Positions 5,647 through 39,971 of a stretch of 64,000 nucleotides of DNA are shown here, piece after piece. Under the pieces are notes generated by a model that was not told the origin of the DNA, did no database searches, and worked only from the letters and a program-made list of their open reading frames with translations. Source of the stretch: a virus. Where the stretch lies: positions 32,001-96,000 of IMG/VR virus record IMGVR_UViG_3300042890_006166, one strand, 5' to 3'. The position numbers were made by a program, and so were the translations under genes. How positions within the stretch are numbered: position 1 is the stretch's first letter; each line of letters opens with the position of its first letter.

Positions 5647-5674
5647 AAAAATTCAGAAAACGAAAGTTCTGAAT

Positions 5675-5682
5675 GATATATA
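5675..5682 (+). promoter_or_regulatory. Putative late promoter GATATATA
   Basis: Intergenic, 24 nt before the ATG at 5707. Confidence 0.7.
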
Positions 5683-5706: not shown

Positions 5707-8373
5707 ATGGATTTACTGAATAAACTCAAAACCCTAAGAAATACAACTACTTCTCCAGAAGTTAAAGCTATCTGTGAATCAAACATTCAAAAGATAGAAA
5801 AAGGAGACCCTAATATCAATTCCGATTCGATCATGGAGTCCATCCAAAATTTCGAACGTGTTGATACACCATCGCAAGATCCCTTTCAACTTATGAGAGA
5901 ACAGGAATTGACTAGATCCAAAAACGCCGCAAATAGATTGATGGAATCATGGGGTGGTGTTGGGAATGGTCTATCCAAAAACTCAGGAAGCTATGTAGAG
6001 AGTGAAAAAGAACAAACATCAAAAGTGGACTATACTAGCTTGAATGAGAATTTGTCTGCTCTTGCTTCGCAGGACAAAGGTGTAGAAGCTTTTATGAAGT
6101 CAGAAGAAGTAAATAATCTGGGTGTTTTTGAAGGAATTAATACAATTCGGAATTCTGGTATTTTCGAACATCCTTCCATCAAAATTATTTGTGAAAAATA
6201 TTATCATTTGCTGAAAAGCAAAAATATGCCAGAATTCCTGGTAGCAGAAGGATTTCTTCAAGAAATGAAAAATTTTGATTGGGATGAAAGAGTACAAGAA
6301 ATAACAGAATCATTAAGCGAAAAGCTAACGGATCTCAGACCTGAAATCGAAGTTTCTAAAGCTTTGTATACCATTTCAAGTAATGCAGGTTCTGATTTTT
6401 ATTCTCCTGTAACCGAATCCCTGAACAAGTGGCTGGTGTCTGAAAATAAATCAATATCTCTTCTAACAAAAGATATTTCAAGATGGCAATTTAATCCTAT
6501 TGTTAGAAACTTGTTGAACAATCTTTCCCTGATGGAACAAGATTCTTCCAAGCTAAATATTCCGATCCATGCTGGTAATTCTTCAGTCCGTAGAGTTTTC
6601 TCTCCTGTTCTTGTAGAAGGAGGTAAAACCATTTTCACCATTGGGTCAAATGTTTTTGAAGGATCAAGCCAAGGATTGAAGAAACTAAATCGTGGGCAGG
6701 TAGCTGTTCTCCCAAAAAATTTCATTTCAGTTTTAGAATCTTTTTATGCTCCATATGTAAAGGTCGATGAGAATGGTTTAAATGTTTTTGTTGGTAAACA
6801 CAAATTTTCTTTAATTGAAGAAGGAGAAAGCGTATCAATTCTATTCAACGGAAAATCAATGAAATTCCAAGATAAAGTGAACCTTTCAAAGGCAATTGGA
6901 TTAGAAATTTCCGGATCTTTGGGTATGAACGAAAACAAAATTGTTTATGACATTTTGAATTTGTATGAGAACTTCCTTTCGATTGTTGAACTTGATTTTG
7001 CAAAAAGAATTGAATCCAAAGTTTATGAAGGTGCTTCAGTAAACCTCATTAAATGGGAAAATAAAATATTCCTTAACAGAATTAACGAATCTATGTCAGA
7101 TAATTCTGTTTTTGAAGTTAATGGAACACAGGCAACAAACATGGTAAGAGAATTCTTGAAATATGATATTTCAGAGGGTTTAACTGAATTTTTGGATGGT
7201 GAATCTAGAATCAAATCTATCATGCTAAACGACAGAAAGAGGTTGATGGAAAATATTACAGTTCTAGAAGGACAGCTTCAAAAAGTTGAATCGCAAATGG
7301 GTTTAAATCCTTTGTTTGCAAATTCACCTGAACTTCAAAGGGCTCAGAATTTATTGGAAAGAGAACTTTCCTCTTTGCGCAAAAAGTGGTCAGCAGTGAA
7401 CACAGAGCTTCAAAAAATTGAAAATGAACCTTTGTCTTTTGAGGAAGTGTACGAGGATGATAAATTTAACGTCGGAGAATATGTTAAGGTTTTGGAATCT
7501 GGAAACACAGGTAAAATTATTTCTATTGATTCTACATCCGGTTCTTATACGGTATTGATGGACAACGGTAGGACCGGAGATTTTAAAATCGATGAAATTA
7601 TCAATCTGGACGATGCATTATCCACTGCAGGTGATGAAAATGAAGTCGAGGCAGAAACACAAGAGGAATTGAAAGAAGCTTCTCAGCAATTGGCTACAGC
7701 TCCCGGTAAATCTGCAAAGGAAAAGAAAGATGCAACTCCAGGCAACACGATGAGAAAAAATACAGAAGCTGCACCTAAAGGAAAAGACAATAACAAAGGT
7801 GGACAAAAAGATGTAGAGAATTTGAAAGATGCTAATTTAGAGGAGGCACCAGAAGGAAAAGAAACACACACCAAATACAAGGCAACTAAAGGTGCTGGGT
7901 ATAATTTGTCGGAAGACACACGTTTCAGCAAATCTGATGTTAAACTTATGAAGCTTTCAGAAACTCCTGGTTCTGAAGAAGGCGATGCAGATTATGAAGT
8001 CAAGGGAATTCGATACAAATCTAAAAACCCTCAGGTCATGAAAACAGATCCTAATTTTGCTTCTGCTCCAGGAAGTGAAAAAGGGAAAGAGCTCCACTAC
8101 AAAGTAGATGATGAGATGGGTTATAATGTGGATGAAAAAACAGAGCTCGAAAAAACAAATCAAAATTTGGCAGTTGCCCCAGGTAAATCCGAAGGAGATG
8201 CTGGATATGGGGTAAAAACTATCAAGGGTAAAGCACATAGTCCACAGGTAATGAAAACTGATCCAAATTTCGCGGTAGCTCCCTCTAAGGGCTCCGAGGG
8301 AAGGATAGGTTATAAGTCCAATCCTGAAATGGGTTACAATATCGACGAAAGCGAGGAGTCAAAAAAAAACTAA
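5707..8373 (+). CDS. Large putative prohead core/internal head protein (coiled coil, SH3/KOW-like domain, C-terminal repeats)
   Basis: Late promoter, upstream of head genes; many (L/I)xE sites; coiled coil near aa 500-575; FNVGEYVKV..GNTGKIISID...YTV SH3/KOW-like segment; APG(K/S)- and GYN-containing repeats. Confidence 0.6.
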   Translation: MDLLNKLKTLRNTTTSPEVKAICESNIQKIEKGDPNINSDSIMESIQNFERVDTPSQDPFQLMREQELTRSKNAANRLMESWGGVGNGLSKNSGSYVESEKEQTSKVDYTSLNENLSALASQDKGVEAFMKSEEVNNLGVFEGINTIRNSGIFEHPSIKIICEKYYHLLKSKNMPEFLVAEGFLQEMKNFDWDERVQEITESLSEKLTDLRPEIEVSKALYTISSNAGSDFYSPVTESLNKWLVSENKSISLLTKDISRWQFNPIVRNLLNNLSLMEQDSSKLNIPIHAGNSSVRRVFSPVLVEGGKTIFTIGSNVFEGSSQGLKKLNRGQVAVLPKNFISVLESFYAPYVKVDENGLNVFVGKHKFSLIEEGESVSILFNGKSMKFQDKVNLSKAIGLEISGSLGMNENKIVYDILNLYENFLSIVELDFAKRIESKVYEGASVNLIKWENKIFLNRINESMSDNSVFEVNGTQATNMVREFLKYDISEGLTEFLDGESRIKSIMLNDRKRLMENITVLEGQLQKVESQMGLNPLFANSPELQRAQNLLERELSSLRKKWSAVNTELQKIENEPLSFEEVYEDDKFNVGEYVKVLESGNTGKIISIDSTSGSYTVLMDNGRTGDFKIDEIINLDDALSTAGDENEVEAETQEELKEASQQLATAPGKSAKEKKDATPGNTMRKNTEAAPKGKDNNKGGQKDVENLKDANLEEAPEGKETHTKYKATKGAGYNLSEDTRFSKSDVKLMKLSETPGSEEGDADYEVKGIRYKSKNPQVMKTDPNFASAPGSEKGKELHYKVDDEMGYNVDEKTELEKTNQNLAVAPGKSEGDAGYGVKTIKGKAHSPQVMKTDPNFAVAPSKGSEGRIGYKSNPEMGYNIDESEESKKN
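7969..8349 (+). repeat. Intragenic tandem duplication of about 68 aa
   Basis: Two copies of EGDA.Y.VK....K...PQVMKTDPNFA.AP......YK...EMGYN(V/I)DE. Confidence 0.85.
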
Positions 8374-8540
8374 AAAAAATCCTCAGTAGGGTATGGGCTT
8401 TTGCACCATCTAGTCCAGATCAGGACAAAAAACCCGAACCTTTTGTAGATGATTATAAAAAGGGTATGAGTTTTGCACCATCTGGAAAATCTGAAGATAG
8501 TGAATTTACAGATGATTCGGCTGAGGAAAATAAGTTTTAA
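8364..8540 (+). other. Putative -1 frameshift site (A_AAA_AAC) and about 57-codon -1-frame extension of ORF 5707
   Basis: 0-frame reads TCA AAA AAA AAC TAA. The -1 frame stays open to TAA at 8538-8540 and encodes KKKLKKILSRVWAFAPSSPDQDKKPEPFVDDYKKGMSFAPSGKSEDSEFTDDSAEENKF, containing the same FAP(S/G)(G)KSE-type motif as the upstream repeats. Confidence 0.7.
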
Positions 8541-8542
8541 AT

Positions 8543-8570
8543 GAAACTAACCTCGAGGATAAAACTAAGA
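8543..8570 (+). promoter_or_regulatory. Putative middle (ECF-type) promoter GAAAC-N18-TAAGA upstream of the gp55-like gene
   Basis: Same architecture as the other GAAAC sites. Confidence 0.4.
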
Positions 8571-8599
8571 TTCTAAGTTAGCAATTTTTTTAACATTTA

Positions 8600-8959
8600 A
8601 TGACAAAAGTTTACGTTACAAACTCCAGTTTAATGGCTGCTATTCTTGAATCTAAGAAAAAAGGCCAACTGACCAACGAGACAATCGAAATGTTCAATTT
8701 AATGATTGCTGGTATTTCCAAGAAAATGGCTTACAAAGATCCAGATGATAAAGCTGATTGTATGGCTTTTGCAATGGAAGATCTTTGTAAGTATTGGAAT
8801 AGGTTCGATCCAACCAAATCAAATAATCCATTTGCTTATTACACACAAATAGCAAAAAATGGATTTGCAAAAGGGTGGAAAAAAATTCACCCCCCTAAAT
8901 CCCCTAAAACCATTCCATTTTCTTATATTACAGGAGAAGACAATTCCTATAATATTTAG
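8600..8959 (+). CDS. gp55: T4 gp55-like late-transcription sigma factor (short)
   Basis: YVTNSSL start and C..YWNRFDPTKSNNPFAYYTQIA match the gp55 family signature (NFDPEKS.NPFAYFTQI). Confidence 0.8.
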   Translation: MTKVYVTNSSLMAAILESKKKGQLTNETIEMFNLMIAGISKKMAYKDPDDKADCMAFAMEDLCKYWNRFDPTKSNNPFAYYTQIAKNGFAKGWKKIHPPKSPKTIPFSYITGEDNSYNI

Positions 8960-25425: not shown

Positions 25426-27459
25426 ATGATGATGGAAGATTTACCTTTTATGAATGAGAATCTGGTGTTTATCTTGGAGAAGCAAGGTCATCACGTTGAG
25501 GCTTCTAAAGACTCAGATGGCTACACTTTAAAAGGTATTGCAGCACAGTTCGGGAAAGAAAACAATAACAACAGAATTTACGAAGAAAGTGAATATCTCC
25601 CACATTTGGATTACCTGAATGATAAGATCAAACAAAAGAGATTGGTTGGAGAGTTGGATCATCCTGAAAAATTTGATGTCTCTTTGAAGAATATCTCTCA
25701 TATCATCGAGGATCTCCAATACGACAAAAGCGGAAGAGTACTTAAAATCACGGTAAAATTGCTTGACACTCCTGCTGGCCAAATAGCCAAGAAATTGGTT
25801 GATGCAGGCATTCCACTTTCTATTTCTTCTCGTGCAGCTGGAAATGTTGGCCCAGATAAGAAAGTTCAAATTAAAAAAATCTTCACTTATGATCTTGTAG
25901 CAGATCCAGGTTTTCAGGATGCTCAATTAGAAAGAGTATACGAAAGCGCTGGTTTTACATTCTCTGATTTTTCGAATCGGAACAAAAATTCAGTTGTTCA
26001 CGATCTAAAATGTCTCAACGAGTCTTTAGGTATCAAAAATGATTCGGGAGTGATGATATATAAGGTTGACGATAATGAAGAATTTAAAAAAATACTCAAA
26101 TCAGACAAAAATAAAAATAACATCATGGAGTCCAGAAAAGAATATGTAACGAGTGAAGAACTCAACAATTATTCCATTTTCTTAAAGAAAAAAATGGATG
26201 AGCTCGAGTCTCAAATCCGCGAGGCTAAGACCACTCAGAATTTGGTAGAAAGCTCAGATTCTTATACAAAACAACTCGAGGAAAGAGTAGATCGTCTAGA
26301 AAAATACTGCGAGTATTTGGCAGAAAATCTGGAAGCATCTATCAAGTATGGCGAATACGTTGCAGAGAATTTGGACAACTCCATTACTTACAGCAAATAT
26401 CTCGCAGAGAATCTTGACAAGAATATCTCCTATTCTAAATACCTCGCAGAGAACGTTGACAAGTCAATTTTGTATTCCGAGTATGTGGCAGAGAACGTGG
26501 ATAAAGGTATTAACTACTCTAAATATCTCGCAGAAAAATTGGATGACACCATTCAATATTCCGAATATCTTGCAGAGAATGTGGATCACACTATTGCCTA
26601 CTCAGAATATCTGGCAGAAAATGTAGACAGAAATATTTCTTATTCTGAATATCTCGCAGAGAAGTTAGATAGAAACATTTCTTATGCTGAATATCTCGCG
26701 GAGAATTTGGACAAAGGTATTGCCTACTCAGAATATCTTGGTGAAAACCTTGATAAAGGTATTGCCTACTCAGAATATATTGGCGAAAAATTAGAACAAG
26801 GAATTTCTTATTCCGAATATTTGGCAGAAAATGTAAACAGAACAATTTCTTATTCTGAATACATAGCCGAAAAATTAAATGGCACGATTTCGTACACCGA
26901 GTCTTTGTCTGAAAGCGTAGGATATCAACCAGTGGTTGAAAAAGACGCACGGAGACAGGCAGAAGTCGCCTCAAGAACTGAATTAGCGGAGTCTGGGTTT
27001 GCAGGAGATTATACAAATCTTGGCAAACAAATTGATTTCCTAATTGAGTCGGTCCAAACCCAAAAGACCGAAAATGATCAAAGAAAGGCTGAAAGCAAAT
27101 GGCAGCCTACTGCTCAAACACAAAAAGCAGAACAAGTTCTCAACGAGAATGCAGACGCCAAACCAACATCTGGCCACAAGTTCATCGACGAGATGCCAAC
27201 AGAGTATGCTCCGATTTGGGAGTCATTGAGCGAAGGACATAAGCAATCAATTATTGCCCAGTCTATTTTCCACAATCTCAATACACCTTATCAGATCAGA
27301 AATTTCTGGTCAACCCGTCAATTTGGACCTAAGCCTCTGGCTATGCAAAAATTGCAAGAGAACGAAAACATATCAGAGTCTTCAAACAGTCAGGCAACCG
27401 CTGCTTACAGCAACGATTATCTGAGCTGGGTGGCTAAGTCACTAGAAGGCAAATTCTAA
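25426..27459 (+). CDS. gp21: Prohead protease (T4 gp21-like) fused to a repeat-rich scaffold/core domain
   Basis: N.NNRIY, GELDHP, SH.I, TP.GQIA..L, ISSRAAG (catalytic Ser), YDLVADPGF; followed by a 14-aa-repeat coiled coil; directly upstream of the MCP. Confidence 0.9.
   Translation: MMMEDLPFMNENLVFILEKQGHHVEASKDSDGYTLKGIAAQFGKENNNNRIYEESEYLPHLDYLNDKIKQKRLVGELDHPEKFDVSLKNISHIIEDLQYDKSGRVLKITVKLLDTPAGQIAKKLVDAGIPLSISSRAAGNVGPDKKVQIKKIFTYDLVADPGFQDAQLERVYESAGFTFSDFSNRNKNSVVHDLKCLNESLGIKNDSGVMIYKVDDNEEFKKILKSDKNKNNIMESRKEYVTSEELNNYSIFLKKKMDELESQIREAKTTQNLVESSDSYTKQLEERVDRLEKYCEYLAENLEASIKYGEYVAENLDNSITYSKYLAENLDKNISYSKYLAENVDKSILYSEYVAENVDKGINYSKYLAEKLDDTIQYSEYLAENVDHTIAYSEYLAENVDRNISYSEYLAEKLDRNISYAEYLAENLDKGIAYSEYLGENLDKGIAYSEYIGEKLEQGISYSEYLAENVNRTISYSEYIAEKLNGTISYTESLSESVGYQPVVEKDARRQAEVASRTELAESGFAGDYTNLGKQIDFLIESVQTQKTENDQRKAESKWQPTAQTQKAEQVLNENADAKPTSGHKFIDEMPTEYAPIWESLSEGHKQSIIAQSIFHNLNTPYQIRNFWSTRQFGPKPLAMQKLQENENISESSNSQATAAYSNDYLSWVAKSLEGKF
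26055..26062 (+). promoter_or_regulatory. Internal late promoter GATATATA inside the protease gene
   Basis: Exact motif at the protease/scaffold junction, 62 nt before the in-frame ATG at 26125. Confidence 0.6.
26125..27459 (+). CDS. Nested in-frame scaffold/prohead core protein (gp22-like role)
   Basis: In-frame ATG (MESRKEY) preceded by AAAAATAAAAATAACATC, the same A-rich leader style as other starts, with an upstream late promoter. Confidence 0.55.
   Translation: MESRKEYVTSEELNNYSIFLKKKMDELESQIREAKTTQNLVESSDSYTKQLEERVDRLEKYCEYLAENLEASIKYGEYVAENLDNSITYSKYLAENLDKNISYSKYLAENVDKSILYSEYVAENVDKGINYSKYLAEKLDDTIQYSEYLAENVDHTIAYSEYLAENVDRNISYSEYLAEKLDRNISYAEYLAENLDKGIAYSEYLGENLDKGIAYSEYIGEKLEQGISYSEYLAENVNRTISYSEYIAEKLNGTISYTESLSESVGYQPVVEKDARRQAEVASRTELAESGFAGDYTNLGKQIDFLIESVQTQKTENDQRKAESKWQPTAQTQKAEQVLNENADAKPTSGHKFIDEMPTEYAPIWESLSEGHKQSIIAQSIFHNLNTPYQIRNFWSTRQFGPKPLAMQKLQENENISESSNSQATAAYSNDYLSWVAKSLEGKF
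26311..26898 (+). repeat. 14 x 42-bp coding tandem repeat ((E/K)YLAENLDKxIxYS)
   Basis: 14 consecutive 14-aa units seen in the translation, synonymously diverged at DNA level. Confidence 0.95.
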
Positions 27460-31073: not shown

Positions 31074-33533
31074 ATGAGAAATTATTTCACTCACAACCCT
31101 GCTGCAAAATCTATTATTACAGATTTTATGAAGCTTAATGAAAATGCCTCGGTGGACAATCTTCTTAAAAGAGCAACAGAGATTTGCTTAGATACATTCA
31201 AAAAAATTGTTTTTGATCTTGCCTCTCAAGAAAATCGCAACCCTGATGTTTTAAGATCCATGTTGTTGGATATTGCATCCGCCAAAACTGTCAAAAGCTT
31301 AGTTGCCAAAATCAAAGATTATGCAGGGGAGTCTGAATTGGCAGATTCTAGATTTTCTAAGGTTAAAAATATGTATATGAATGCCTTAAATTCTATGGGT
31401 GATGCATTGAAAAGATTGGTTGAAATTGATTCTAAATTAGAGGATTCTATTATTGATTCTTACAAAACTTCAGCTAATCGATTAATTTCCTCTTTGGATT
31501 CTATTGCATTAAGTTTTTCAAAAAAGAAAGCGACTAATGAATCTTCAAGTTTTGATTTTAATTCAAATTCTTTGAACGAGTCTCTCGTAGGGTTTAGCGG
31601 TAGAATCGAAAAACTAAGAAAAAAACTTGTTAATTTGATTTCTGATTCCAAAGGAAAGGATGCAAAAAATGGATATGGGAGAGACTGGCAAAGACTGTTT
31701 TCTTCACTGGAACAAAAATTAGAAGCCATTGAAGACTCCAAAGATTTAACTGGCGAGAAAGACAGAAAAACTTTGTCTGAACTAGAAAAACAAACAGATT
31801 CTCTTTCCGAAGAATATTACAATTACAAGATTAGAACTGCAGAGATGAGTATGAAAAAGATCATTGATGACGATGAACTTGTGACAAAATATTCAGATGT
31901 GAATCAAATTATTACCGATGCTTTGGACATTATAGCAAAAGCAAATGGTCAAGAGTTATTGATAGATAAAACTATCAGGGAAGAAATGGATGAGATGGAG
32001 CAGAAGGTGATTCAAAAAATTTTCCCGATAAAAATTGGAGCAAAGGACACAGACCTGAAATTTAAAAAGTCTGGTATTATCACTGCTGTACAGAAATCTT
32101 TAATGTCATCTTTCCCCTCTTTTAAAACTTTCTTACAAAAACATGGAGGGGCGGATGGTAAATACGGTAAAGCAACATCAATTGCAATCAAGTCTATCCA
32201 ATCTTTACTTGGAAATAAAAACGCAAATGGTGAATTGGATAAACCCCTTTTCGATTCTCTCCTGAAAATGGAGCAAATCTCCGGCGAAAACAAAAAAATG
32301 TTAACAAATGCTTTGGGTGTTTTGAAAAAAACATATGCTATGTCAGAATCCAAGGTTTTAGGAATAGAGAATTTCTCAAAATTATTTGAAGCCATTTTTA
32401 TCGATGATGATGATCTAGAAAGAGAAATCCAAAAAAATTCAGCAGATTTGGCTAATATGCCCGAAAATAGTTCTGCAAAAGATAAAGAAGAGAAAACATC
32501 AGAAGATTCTAAATTAGCAAAAAAATTATCAAAGCTGTTAAGAAACGGTTACAACAAAAATGCAGAAGAGGAGGATTTTTTGAAAGAAGATGGAACACTT
32601 AAGAGTTCTTATCCGAATGAATTCGTGAGTGCGTGGATTAGTACACTAGAAGAAAACTCTAGCTCATCTGATAAACCTGGCTTCTTTTGGTTCCAAGAGC
32701 CTGATGAAAAAACGGGTGCTCTTTATTCAACTAAAAGATTGGCAGGTAATTACAAAAAACCATATAATTGGGAAAAATGGAAGGAATTTTCAGGAGGGGA
32801 AACTTCACAAGAAAAAGATTCTTTCGCAAGATGGTACACGAGCTACTACACAGGGTTTGGTGGTTTAGAAGACATTCAAAAAGAAAAGGTAATTAAAGAA
32901 CTACTTGACTTCTATTCAAATCCAAAAAACTCCTCTATGGTTAATCCAAAATTGGCTGATTCTTTCAACGATTGTGCTAGTTTTTATGATGACATAAAAG
33001 ATGCAATTAAGGCAGGTAAATCTTCACCGGATTCAGATTCATATGAATACTTTAAACAGGGATATTTGACTTCTGAAGCCATGGCAAAAATCTTAGAGGC
33101 TGCTTCAACTGCTGCACAAATAGATGATGAAGAGCCAGATTTAGGATTCTATGATTTTTTGATGCTTTCGATCTGTGTATTCCTTTGTGGATCTTCCATA
33201 GCTTGGAATTCTGAAAAGAAAAAATGGGATTCAGCTTTGAATATTTTGAAGAATAAGGTATTGACAGAGGGTGTTTTAAAGAAAATCTCGGATGTTAAAG
33301 TGGTAGAAAATGATCCCAAATCGCCAATCCCATCATTGAATAAACAAGGAATAGAGATATTGACTAAGGGATATGATGGTAACTCCAAAAAAATCTTCAA
33401 AGAAAATTTAGAAAGAGCCTCTAAAGTTCTTGTTCCTTTAGTCGAAAGACATGCAGATAGAATGAATTACAAGAAGAAGGAAGACATTAAAACATTCGAC
33501 TCTAAGAATGTGTTTGTGGTTAATTTAGATTGA
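31074..33533 (+). CDS. Large putative internal head/ejection protein with a peptidoglycan-binding-like domain
   Basis: N-terminal DFMKLNE; segment VQKSL...GADGKYGKATSIAIKSIQ....NGELD resembles PG_binding_1 (DG.YG..T..A...Q). Confidence 0.6.
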   Translation: MRNYFTHNPAAKSIITDFMKLNENASVDNLLKRATEICLDTFKKIVFDLASQENRNPDVLRSMLLDIASAKTVKSLVAKIKDYAGESELADSRFSKVKNMYMNALNSMGDALKRLVEIDSKLEDSIIDSYKTSANRLISSLDSIALSFSKKKATNESSSFDFNSNSLNESLVGFSGRIEKLRKKLVNLISDSKGKDAKNGYGRDWQRLFSSLEQKLEAIEDSKDLTGEKDRKTLSELEKQTDSLSEEYYNYKIRTAEMSMKKIIDDDELVTKYSDVNQIITDALDIIAKANGQELLIDKTIREEMDEMEQKVIQKIFPIKIGAKDTDLKFKKSGIITAVQKSLMSSFPSFKTFLQKHGGADGKYGKATSIAIKSIQSLLGNKNANGELDKPLFDSLLKMEQISGENKKMLTNALGVLKKTYAMSESKVLGIENFSKLFEAIFIDDDDLEREIQKNSADLANMPENSSAKDKEEKTSEDSKLAKKLSKLLRNGYNKNAEEEDFLKEDGTLKSSYPNEFVSAWISTLEENSSSSDKPGFFWFQEPDEKTGALYSTKRLAGNYKKPYNWEKWKEFSGGETSQEKDSFARWYTSYYTGFGGLEDIQKEKVIKELLDFYSNPKNSSMVNPKLADSFNDCASFYDDIKDAIKAGKSSPDSDSYEYFKQGYLTSEAMAKILEAASTAAQIDDEEPDLGFYDFLMLSICVFLCGSSIAWNSEKKKWDSALNILKNKVLTEGVLKKISDVKVVENDPKSPIPSLNKQGIEILTKGYDGNSKKIFKENLERASKVLVPLVERHADRMNYKKKEDIKTFDSKNVFVVNLD

Positions 33534-39088: not shown

Positions 39089-39971
39089 TTTGGTTCCCTA
39101 TTTTGAAGAATTTTTTTCTCTAAATGAGTCAAAATCTTCTGGAAAAAAAAATTTAGGCATCATAGGACCTTTGGCAAACTGGTCACTTAAACTTCAAGTA
39201 TATCCGGAACCTAATCAGGGTATGATTGGATATGCCATAGATGAAAATTGGGTCGAGCTGGAACACAATGACAAAAAAGTTAGATTTCCGAAATCCTGCT
39301 GTGAAATGAAGTCCAATACAAAATCGGCGGTCATCCACATAAAACCTTACACGAAGTGGTTTTCAAAATTGAAGAATCGAGAAGAAATGGAAGATTTTAT
39401 CGATAATTTCGTCGAGTCCAACACGGTTAAAAAAGAAAGTGGTCTGGAGAGAATATCGGAAAACACCCAAATTATTTTGGATTTATTTGGAATACATTCA
39501 CAAGTACAAAATAATCAGATGAGGTTTCCCGGACTTTATGAATTGAAATTGGACAATGGAATGGAGGTAGAGATGGAAAAAAATGAAGGATCTGAACTTT
39601 TTTCTGAACTGAAAGTTTACAAATCTGGAGATGCTAAATTTCCAGACATCAGGATTAAAAGAAAAAACAACCAATATCTGATGGAATTCAGAGGGCCTTC
39701 TGGAAAATTTATTGAGTCCGAAGAATCACTCGTAGATCTTTTCGAAAATAGAATTTGCACATACCTAACTAAATGTGTTTTGGGCATGGATTGCTCAGAA
39801 GAAGAATCACATTTAATCGGGAGGTTGAAAGAAACTTTGTCTGAAAAAGTGGATCTAAAAAATTCAGATAAGATAGAAAAGAGAAAAAAAATGATTGAAA
39901 ATCTGAGAGATGTCTTAAGCAATTCGATAGAGAATTCTCTACTGGAAGACATTTTGCAAGGCGAAAATTAG
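39081..39971 (+). CDS. Putative internal head protein
   Basis: Start placed at ATG 39081; LVPYFEEFFSLNES motif. Confidence 0.6.
   Translation: MNNLVPYFEEFFSLNESKSSGKKNLGIIGPLANWSLKLQVYPEPNQGMIGYAIDENWVELEHNDKKVRFPKSCCEMKSNTKSAVIHIKPYTKWFSKLKNREEMEDFIDNFVESNTVKKESGLERISENTQIILDLFGIHSQVQNNQMRFPGLYELKLDNGMEVEMEKNEGSELFSELKVYKSGDAKFPDIRIKRKNNQYLMEFRGPSGKFIESEESLVDLFENRICTYLTKCVLGMDCSEEESHLIGRLKETLSEKVDLKNSDKIEKRKKMIENLRDVLSNSIENSLLEDILQGEN

Follow-up and report, generated by a model that had tools for sequence, protein, structure and literature searches.

The window analysed here is a stretch of 64,000 nucleotides of viral DNA (positions 32,001 to 96,000 of the IMG/VR virus record IMGVR_UViG_3300042890_006166). 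It holds a long open reading frame (ORF) for a protein of 888 residues, whose coding sequence ends in a run of nine adenines (A9), one cytosine and a stop codon. A gene for a gp55-like late sigma factor follows after a gap of 226 nucleotides. An initial annotation of this DNA, made from the sequence alone, proposed that a programmed -1 frameshift at the A run gives the protein two C-terminal isoforms. Table 1 lists the features of the locus.

Probable recoding at the end of the 888-residue gene

The gene closes with the codons TCA (8359-8361), AAA, AAA, AAC (8368-8370) and TAA (8371-8373), and the A_AAA_AAC heptamer that had been reported inside the A9 run, just before the stop, is indeed present. 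It overlaps with a second heptamer, A_AAA_AAA (8361-8367). Read in the -1 frame from 8370 on, the sequence gives LKKILSRVWAFAPSSPDQDKKPEPFVDDYKKGMSFAPSGKSEDSEFTDDSAEENKF, which begins L K K I L S R V W A F A P S and closes with TAA at 8538-8540. This frame had been described as about 57 codons long; it consists of 56 codons and a stop, and the peptide quoted for it was exact. A shift into it within the last three codons of the gene would add a C-terminal extension of 56 residues, for a predicted product of 944 residues. The remark that the gap (8374-8599) was otherwise unexplained also held: it contains no further ORF of more than 25 residues on either strand, and a comparison with Rfam returned only a chance PreQ1 match (E = 0.99). 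From composition alone we estimate a chance of about 2% that DNA of 36% GC would hold an open frame of 56 codons. The site is nevertheless non-random, since the tract and the open -1 frame are kept in all of the 71 unique contexts described below.

Table 1. Features at and around the end of the 888-residue gene, in positions of the window
Feature	Position	Strand	Basis or remark
0-frame ORF of the 888-residue protein (short isoform)	5707..8373	+	ORF list and translation
A9 tract, candidate slip site	8361..8369	+	A9 in 69/71 unique contexts, A10 in 2/71
0-frame heptamer A_AAA_AAC, candidate ribosomal -1 slippery site	8364..8370	+	sequence
0-frame stop TAA, immediately 3' of the slip site	8371..8373	+	adjacent in 67/71 unique contexts
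Putative -1 frame extension, 56 codons and stop	8370..8540	+	LKKILSRVWAFAPS..PFVDDYKKGMSFAPSGK, then acidic end
Second A run (A8), Lys-Lys of the extension	8372..8379	+	nucleotides vary among relatives
5-bp hairpin ATCCT-CAGT-AGGGT	8379..8392	+	outside the minimum-free-energy fold; not conserved
Spacer up to the gp55-like late sigma gene (8600-8959)	8541..8599	+	sequence
Inverted repeat TTCAGAA/TTCTGAA, then GATATATA	5652..5682	+	24 nucleotides before the ATG of the 888-residue gene

A protein search returned 255 relatives of the 888-residue protein. All 15 of the close protein clusters (84-99% identity) are exactly 888 residues long, the inspected relatives down to 45% identity all terminate in ...KKN, and K886, K887 and N888 are invariant in an alignment of 58 sequences that reaches 42% identity. 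At the nucleotide level, two scans of IMG/VR gave 134 loci on about 121 distinct contigs (a count taken from the result tables), which were deduplicated to 71 unique site contexts. The slippery site and the -1 ORF are kept at all readable gene ends in these related contigs, which encode proteins of 39-100% identity. There the run is always an uninterrupted A9 or A10, never shorter than nine, and the -1 frame behind it is open for 50-62 codons (77 in one). The commonest context is A9-CTAA (48 of the 71), followed by A9-TTAA (12), A9-GTAA (3), A9-CTGA (3) and A9-CTAG (1). The rarer arrangements are an A9 whose stop lies 35 nucleotides later (2), A10-GCT-TAA (1), A10-TAA (1) and an in-frame fusion that still carries the A9 (1). 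A canonical X_XXY_YYZ heptamer (A_AAA_AAY, AAG or AAA) stands in the right phase in 69 of the contexts, the variants in relatives including A_AAA_AAT in 12 and A_AAA_AAG in 3, and a 0-frame stop (TAA, TGA or TAG) directly follows the site in 67.

This conservation concerns the nucleotides and not just the residues. The two lysine codons of the tract are AAA in 71/71 and 74/75 cases, against 15-54% AAG in 14 conserved control lysine columns from 78 unique ORFs; lysine codons elsewhere in these genes are 70% AAA. The codon that precedes the lysine pair changes its residue (TCA Ser, CTA or TTA Leu, GTA Val), while its wobble base is always A. The neighbouring A8 run is not kept as nucleotides, with relatives reading AAGAAG, AGAAAA or AAATCG, which makes this run an internal control against which the invariant A9 can be judged.

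The -1 frame itself bears the marks of a protein under selection. We calculated Nei-Gojobori estimates for the gap-free part of the extension in three clades. The ratio of nonsynonymous to synonymous differences per site (pN/pS) is 0.28, 0.14 and 0.22 in the -1 frame and 1.1-3.7 in the 0 and +1 frames, with synonymous divergence near saturation (pS about 0.6) and variable columns clustered at the third positions of the -1 frame. The first codon after the shift is Leu (CTA, CTG or TTA) in nearly all contexts and Val in three, and the 0-frame stop alternates between TAA and TGA while the overlapping -1 codon stays Leu. The conserved blocks are L[KR]KILS[RK]VW[AS]FAP, PFV[DQ] and K[ML]S[VFK]AP[DT]GK, followed by an acidic end; in the most distant clade the extension reads LSRNFYFAPK...GKLSKAPTGK. 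A motif scan finds that the extension contributes two more hydrophobic-x-x-A-P-x-G-K (FAP..GK) motifs. The claim that its motifs are akin to the protein's own repeats stands only at the level of motifs; in BLASTP the likeness to the tail is weak (E = 0.14).

Natural variants tie the extension to the large protein directly. In four contigs from four metagenomes (L096, L097, L099 and L135) the tail is fused in frame (SKKNPSRNFYFAPK...; ...GSKKNPSRNFYFAPKSEDQN...KAPTGKNIVEEEEEGGEKE), which places the extension in the same polypeptide as the large protein. The fused form (876 residues; L096, 1501-4131) still carries the A9, and the fusion did not arise within the A run. Here a -1 shift would meet a stop after only three codons. 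The default isoform is consequently reversed in this group: the long form is encoded in the default frame and the short form would need the shift, whereas elsewhere the long form needs it. In two other contigs (L090 and L093) the A9 is kept in a different codon phase, with the stop 12 codons away. The two A10 variants retain the -1 relation, one by a C-to-A substitution (L127) and the other by three extra bases (L094). Finally, an uncultured 462-kb phage encodes a homolog of 631 residues (LR756500.1, 230660-237958, reverse strand) that ends right after a small barrel domain and has no disordered tail, A run or -1 ORF. Because it lacks all three together, the recoding appears to belong to the tail module.

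Purifying selection, the synonymous leucine codons across the stop and the natural in-frame fusion support the reading of the -1 ORF as a protein-coding extension of the 888-residue protein. From this sequence evidence we consider it very probable that programmed recoding yields isoforms of 888 and 944 residues. The isoform half of the original proposal is thus well borne out by selection, conservation and fusion; its other half, that the ribosome is what shifts, appears no likelier than slippage by the polymerase.

Polymerase or ribosome

The mechanism that we favour is slippage of RNA polymerase on the A9, to which the sequence evidence leads us to give about an even chance. Most expression would terminate at the TAA at 8371-8373 and yield the 888-residue protein, while a minority would enter the -1 frame within the A9 and yield the form of 944 residues. 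The nine-A tract would fill the RNA:DNA hybrid, and the host RNA polymerase, directed by the gp55-like sigma of the phage, would occasionally insert an extra A. The resulting A10 mRNA would then be read by ordinary translation as ...S K K K L K K I L S R V W.... We infer all three of the following: that the machine which slips is the polymerase, the ratio of the isoforms, and the role of the extension. For this last our guess is that it brings additional copies of a short linear binding or processing motif to the disordered tail of a late, possibly head-associated protein.

What makes polymerase slippage at least as likely as a ribosomal shift is that the whole run of at least nine A's is conserved, not just the heptamer. 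In the 71 contexts the tract is never shorter than nine A's, whereas the ribosomal heptamer requires only six A's and one more base. Bacterial polymerases slip once a run reaches nine, the length from which selection against runs can also be seen in many genomes (PMC1088944; PMC5009743). The same mechanism is favoured by the lack of a conserved RNA structure downstream and of a Shine-Dalgarno-like element upstream, by the persistence of the A9 in another phase (L090/L093) and in the fused L096, and by the lysine codons of the tract being almost all AAA, with A always at the preceding wobble position. Long A runs also seem to be costly in this system, since sense-strand runs of at least eight A's are depleted in the 59 long ORFs of the window (14 observed against 22.4 expected from synonymous-codon shuffles, P = 0.003); runs of at least seven are as frequent in the same ORFs as expected (61 against 62).

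The weak hairpin that had been noted downstream exists as sequence, but it is neither conserved nor part of the minimum-free-energy fold. RNAalifold found no conserved pairs in the 110 nucleotides after the tract among 34 diverse sequences, and the single-sequence fold of the site in the window is not significant (z = -1.68). An upstream Shine-Dalgarno-like GAGGAG was likewise rejected as a stimulator, as it varies synonymously and is absent from other clades. The adjacent 0-frame stop is the only candidate stimulator of a ribosomal shift that the sequence offers.

The main competitor is programmed -1 frameshifting by the ribosome, which we consider a serious possibility, somewhat short of an even chance. 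Here the tRNAs on A_AAA_AAY or A_AAA_AAA would re-pair one nucleotide upstream, which slow reading of the neighbouring 0-frame stop would promote, and the same 944-residue product would be made from an unaltered A9 mRNA; in a variant of this scheme the ribosome would slide on the lysine-encoding A stretch. Several observations weigh for the ribosome or against polymerase slippage. The heptamer is canonical and in the right phase in almost every context, three lineages use A_AAA_AAG, the best bacterial shifter, and the stop that nearly always adjoins the site is a known ribosomal stimulator. The A9 in this phase supplies two overlapping ribosomal heptamers, A_AAA_AAA and A_AAA_AAY, so that the conserved first A is compatible with a ribosomal shift too. 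The lone metatranscriptome contig over the site (library X15, 8171-8406, depth 3.8) reads A9, but rare variants are lost in contigs, and DNA may be present in the library. Furthermore, AT-rich organisms may suppress slippage on nine A's (PMC1088944), and in a few homologs the tail accommodates a second A9. Precedents exist as well: IS1 employs A_AAA_AAC without a known stimulator (PMC4066793), and shifts at the 3' end commonly extend phage structural proteins, e.g. gene 10 of T7 and T3 and genes of the Listeria phages A118, A500 and PSA (PMC5009743). That said, frameshifting at A_AAA_AAC and A_AAA_AAA is inefficient in E. coli (PMC4066793; PMC5009743), and neither a conserved structure downstream nor a Shine-Dalgarno-like element upstream is there to assist them. 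Despite saturated synonymous divergence the tract has never been cut to the six or seven A's that would suffice for a ribosome, and it persists where the adjacent stop is missing (L090/L093) and where the tail is already fused (L096).

All readings besides polymerase and ribosome are, taken together, unlikely. Replication slippage could toggle A9 and A10 in the DNA, each genome then encoding either the short or the long protein. Homopolymers of nine are mutable and A10 does occur in two relatives, but neither of these is in frame. The in-frame A10 form occurs in none of the 71 contexts and in none of the 15 close protein clusters, the sole fusion arises outside the A run and keeps its A9, and a site-spanning contig from an independent DNA run (depth 14) reads A9 with no indel; we therefore hold such phase variation to be very unlikely. 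Even less credence can be given to an artefact or a relic, that is, to a homopolymer assembly error that conceals a true A10 and one continuous ORF, or to a decaying, untranslated former C-terminus. Homopolymer miscalls are common, and composition gives a frame of this length its small chance. The stretch is, however, present in DNA contigs from several independent studies, and the identical A9 in contigs of many metagenomes and studies, together with the conserved -1 ORF, leads us to reject an A9/A10 assembly error and to regard the site as genuine DNA. This comparison of A9 with A10 was made on contigs, and the phage was absent from the raw-read DNA run X23. A relic would moreover have gathered stops and indels, where the -1 frame is instead under strong purifying selection at a pS of about 0.6. 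The downstream frame might also be an independent small gene with its own start, and the ATG at 8466 does open an ORF of 24 residues (MSFAPSGK...). This too we find barely credible: the conserved part of the frame (L[KR]KILS[RK]VW.FAP) begins with the codon that follows the tract, before that methionine, whose place is taken by Leu in the distant clade (GKLSKAPTGK); the 56-codon frame does not open with a start codon; and the in-frame fusion demonstrates continuity with the large protein. A search for a minus-strand gene in the gap found none.

Further A9 runs occur in the window and in relatives. One at 1343-1351 has the same codon phase (ACA AAA AAA AAT) and lies four codons before the stop of an ORF (744-1364) resembling extracytoplasmic function (ECF) sigma factors; its -1 frame closes at once (TTC TAA), which makes an extension impossible. 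Those at 39143 and 41674 sit near the starts of their ORFs. The second A9 in the disordered tail of some homologs (L067/L068, L108 and L142) lies 48-509 nucleotides before the stop, and the alternative frames there close within 2-11 codons.

Protein, known systems and genomic setting

The 888-residue protein has no significant match in Pfam or PHROGs, and the ESM Atlas offers only an unnamed viral cluster (0.77). An AlphaFold model built with 58 sequences has a mean predicted local distance difference test score (pLDDT) of 62, with values of 75-88 in most of the folded parts. In this prediction residues 1-277 are helical, 292-471 form a beta-rich domain, 473-572 a long coiled coil and 592-633 a small beta barrel, while the tail from 644 to 888 is disordered. 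In a Foldseek comparison with the PDB the small barrel alone has counterparts among solved structures, which are of the KOW, Tudor and YorP type (KOW/SH3-like). In BFVD the protein has structural relatives over its whole length. These are phage proteins that are themselves uncharacterised, and one of them comes from the Bacteroidota phage PTm1 (host Tenacibaculum), although a profile search of the PTm1 genome gave no sequence match. The disordered tail holds repeated hydrophobic-A-x-A-P-(G/S)-K-like and GYN(L/V/I)xE motifs, and the extension is itself predicted to be disordered, motif-bearing and acidic.

The GYN(L/V/I)xE motifs raise a further conjecture. The T4 protease gp21 cleaves after (L/I)xE, and a gp21-like protease is present in the window; by analogy, cleavage after ...GYNIDE could detach 7 residues from the end of the short form, or about 63 from that of the long form. 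The protease domain (Pfam S77, 36 bits, above the cut-off) lies at 25510-25851, inside an open frame of 682 codons that is far longer than T4 gp21.

Two kinds of event are already known that resemble what we propose, namely recoding at the 3' end of phage late genes and programmed slippage on nine A's in bacteria and insertion sequence (IS) elements. One close parallel is dnaX of Thermus thermophilus, where transcriptional slippage on an A9 likewise gives two products with different C-termini from one gene with nine sense-strand A's. There, as in the group of L096, the alternative frame closes within a few codons. In E. coli dnaX the corresponding event is a ribosomal -1 shift at A_AAA_AAG, and these two alternatives are mirrored by the lineages described here that swap the default frame. 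The present case differs from dnaX in that the protein is a phage late protein rather than a replicase subunit, and the shift lengthens the product by 50-62 residues in most members. The 9A/9T slippage of Shigella spa13 and mxiE and of IS elements is similar too, since a homopolymer of about nine is kept at the nucleotide level and a downstream overlapping frame is fused with no RNA structure being needed (PMC1088944; PMC5009743). For these systems there is direct RNA evidence, whereas ours is known from sequence, and the run here abuts the 0-frame stop and forms canonical heptamers.

Ribosomal systems offer parallels of their own. In gene 10A/10B of T7 and T3 and in cps and tsh of the Listeria phages A118, A500 and PSA, the shift likewise falls in the last codons of a phage late gene and adds a C-terminal extension of tens of residues. 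These are, however, shown ribosomal events at other sites (G_GUU_UUC; CCC_UGA) in proven capsid and tail proteins, several of them with a folded Ig-like domain in place of a predicted disordered extension. The insA-insB' junction of IS1 has the same A_AAA_AAC heptamer as a conserved signal without a known stimulator, but with six A's rather than nine. The CsoS2A and CsoS2B proteins of alpha-carboxysomes are also two isoforms of a largely disordered repeat-motif protein that arise by recoding. In that case the shift is ribosomal, with a downstream structure, and yields the shorter form, and CsoS2 bears no sequence relation to the 888-residue protein.

Taking the comparison further, we suggest tentatively that a large clade of uncultured, big T4-like phages of freshwater and marine habitats, possibly infecting Bacteroidota, sets an isoform ratio by polymerase slippage on the A9, with the default frame swapped as in dnaX, and that the gp21-like protease may release an acidic peptide of about 63 residues. 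If true, this would be the first conserved transcriptional-slippage expression device in a family of tailed double-stranded DNA phages, as far as the literature searched extends; it yielded no account of the site or of its family. Whichever machine slips, a deeply conserved, stimulator-free recoding signal would be added in a widespread uncultured phage group. The natural series of A9-C, A9-T and A9-G before the stop, A10, delayed stop and in-frame fusion is well suited to separating polymerase from ribosomal slippage. A further implication is that the disordered AP..GK repeat tail matters for function, as does the dosage of its last two motifs. For annotators there is a practical consequence. 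Current annotations call only the 888-residue form and leave the gap behind it empty. Where a gene caller or pipeline marks sites of this kind as homopolymer errors or pseudogenes, this one deserves to be treated as genuine.

The window comes from a large, uncultured T4-like phage of fresh water and belongs to a record of 112,745 bp. Given a completeness rating of 41% for this record, the full genome probably exceeds 200 kb by a good margin. The 888-residue gene has as neighbours the gp55-like late sigma factor, a head-completion protein with a TnsA fold and a T4-type portal, whose nearest database relatives are from uncultured huge phages (LR7565xx) and Prevotella Lak phages. No cultured relative in the phage collection carries the protein or the site, the best match being the uncultured LR756500.1. 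This DNA was present in sequencing runs of metagenomes from lakes, fresh water, drinking water and aquaculture.

Some minor observations concern individual relatives and the flanks of the gene. In one contig (L107) the extension has lost its stop and continues in the -1 frame to a length of 77 codons, passing into sequence that is hydrophobic and not conserved. In another (L136, 1501-2892) the homolog breaks off in mid-gene after 463 codons, and a further 317 codons are open in the -1 frame; the break contains no homopolymer, and the locus may be an assembly error or a pseudogene. Metatranscriptome contigs from libraries X15 and X17 span 8424-8742, which takes in the extension, the spacer and the first part of the gp55-like gene; DNA carry-over is possible. 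Upstream of the 888-residue gene, the inverted repeat and the GATATATA that follows it are possibly a terminator and a late-type promoter, judging from their sequence. Immediately after the stop of the extension, a TGAAAC at 8542-8547 is kept in all ten of the loci compared (L001-L010).

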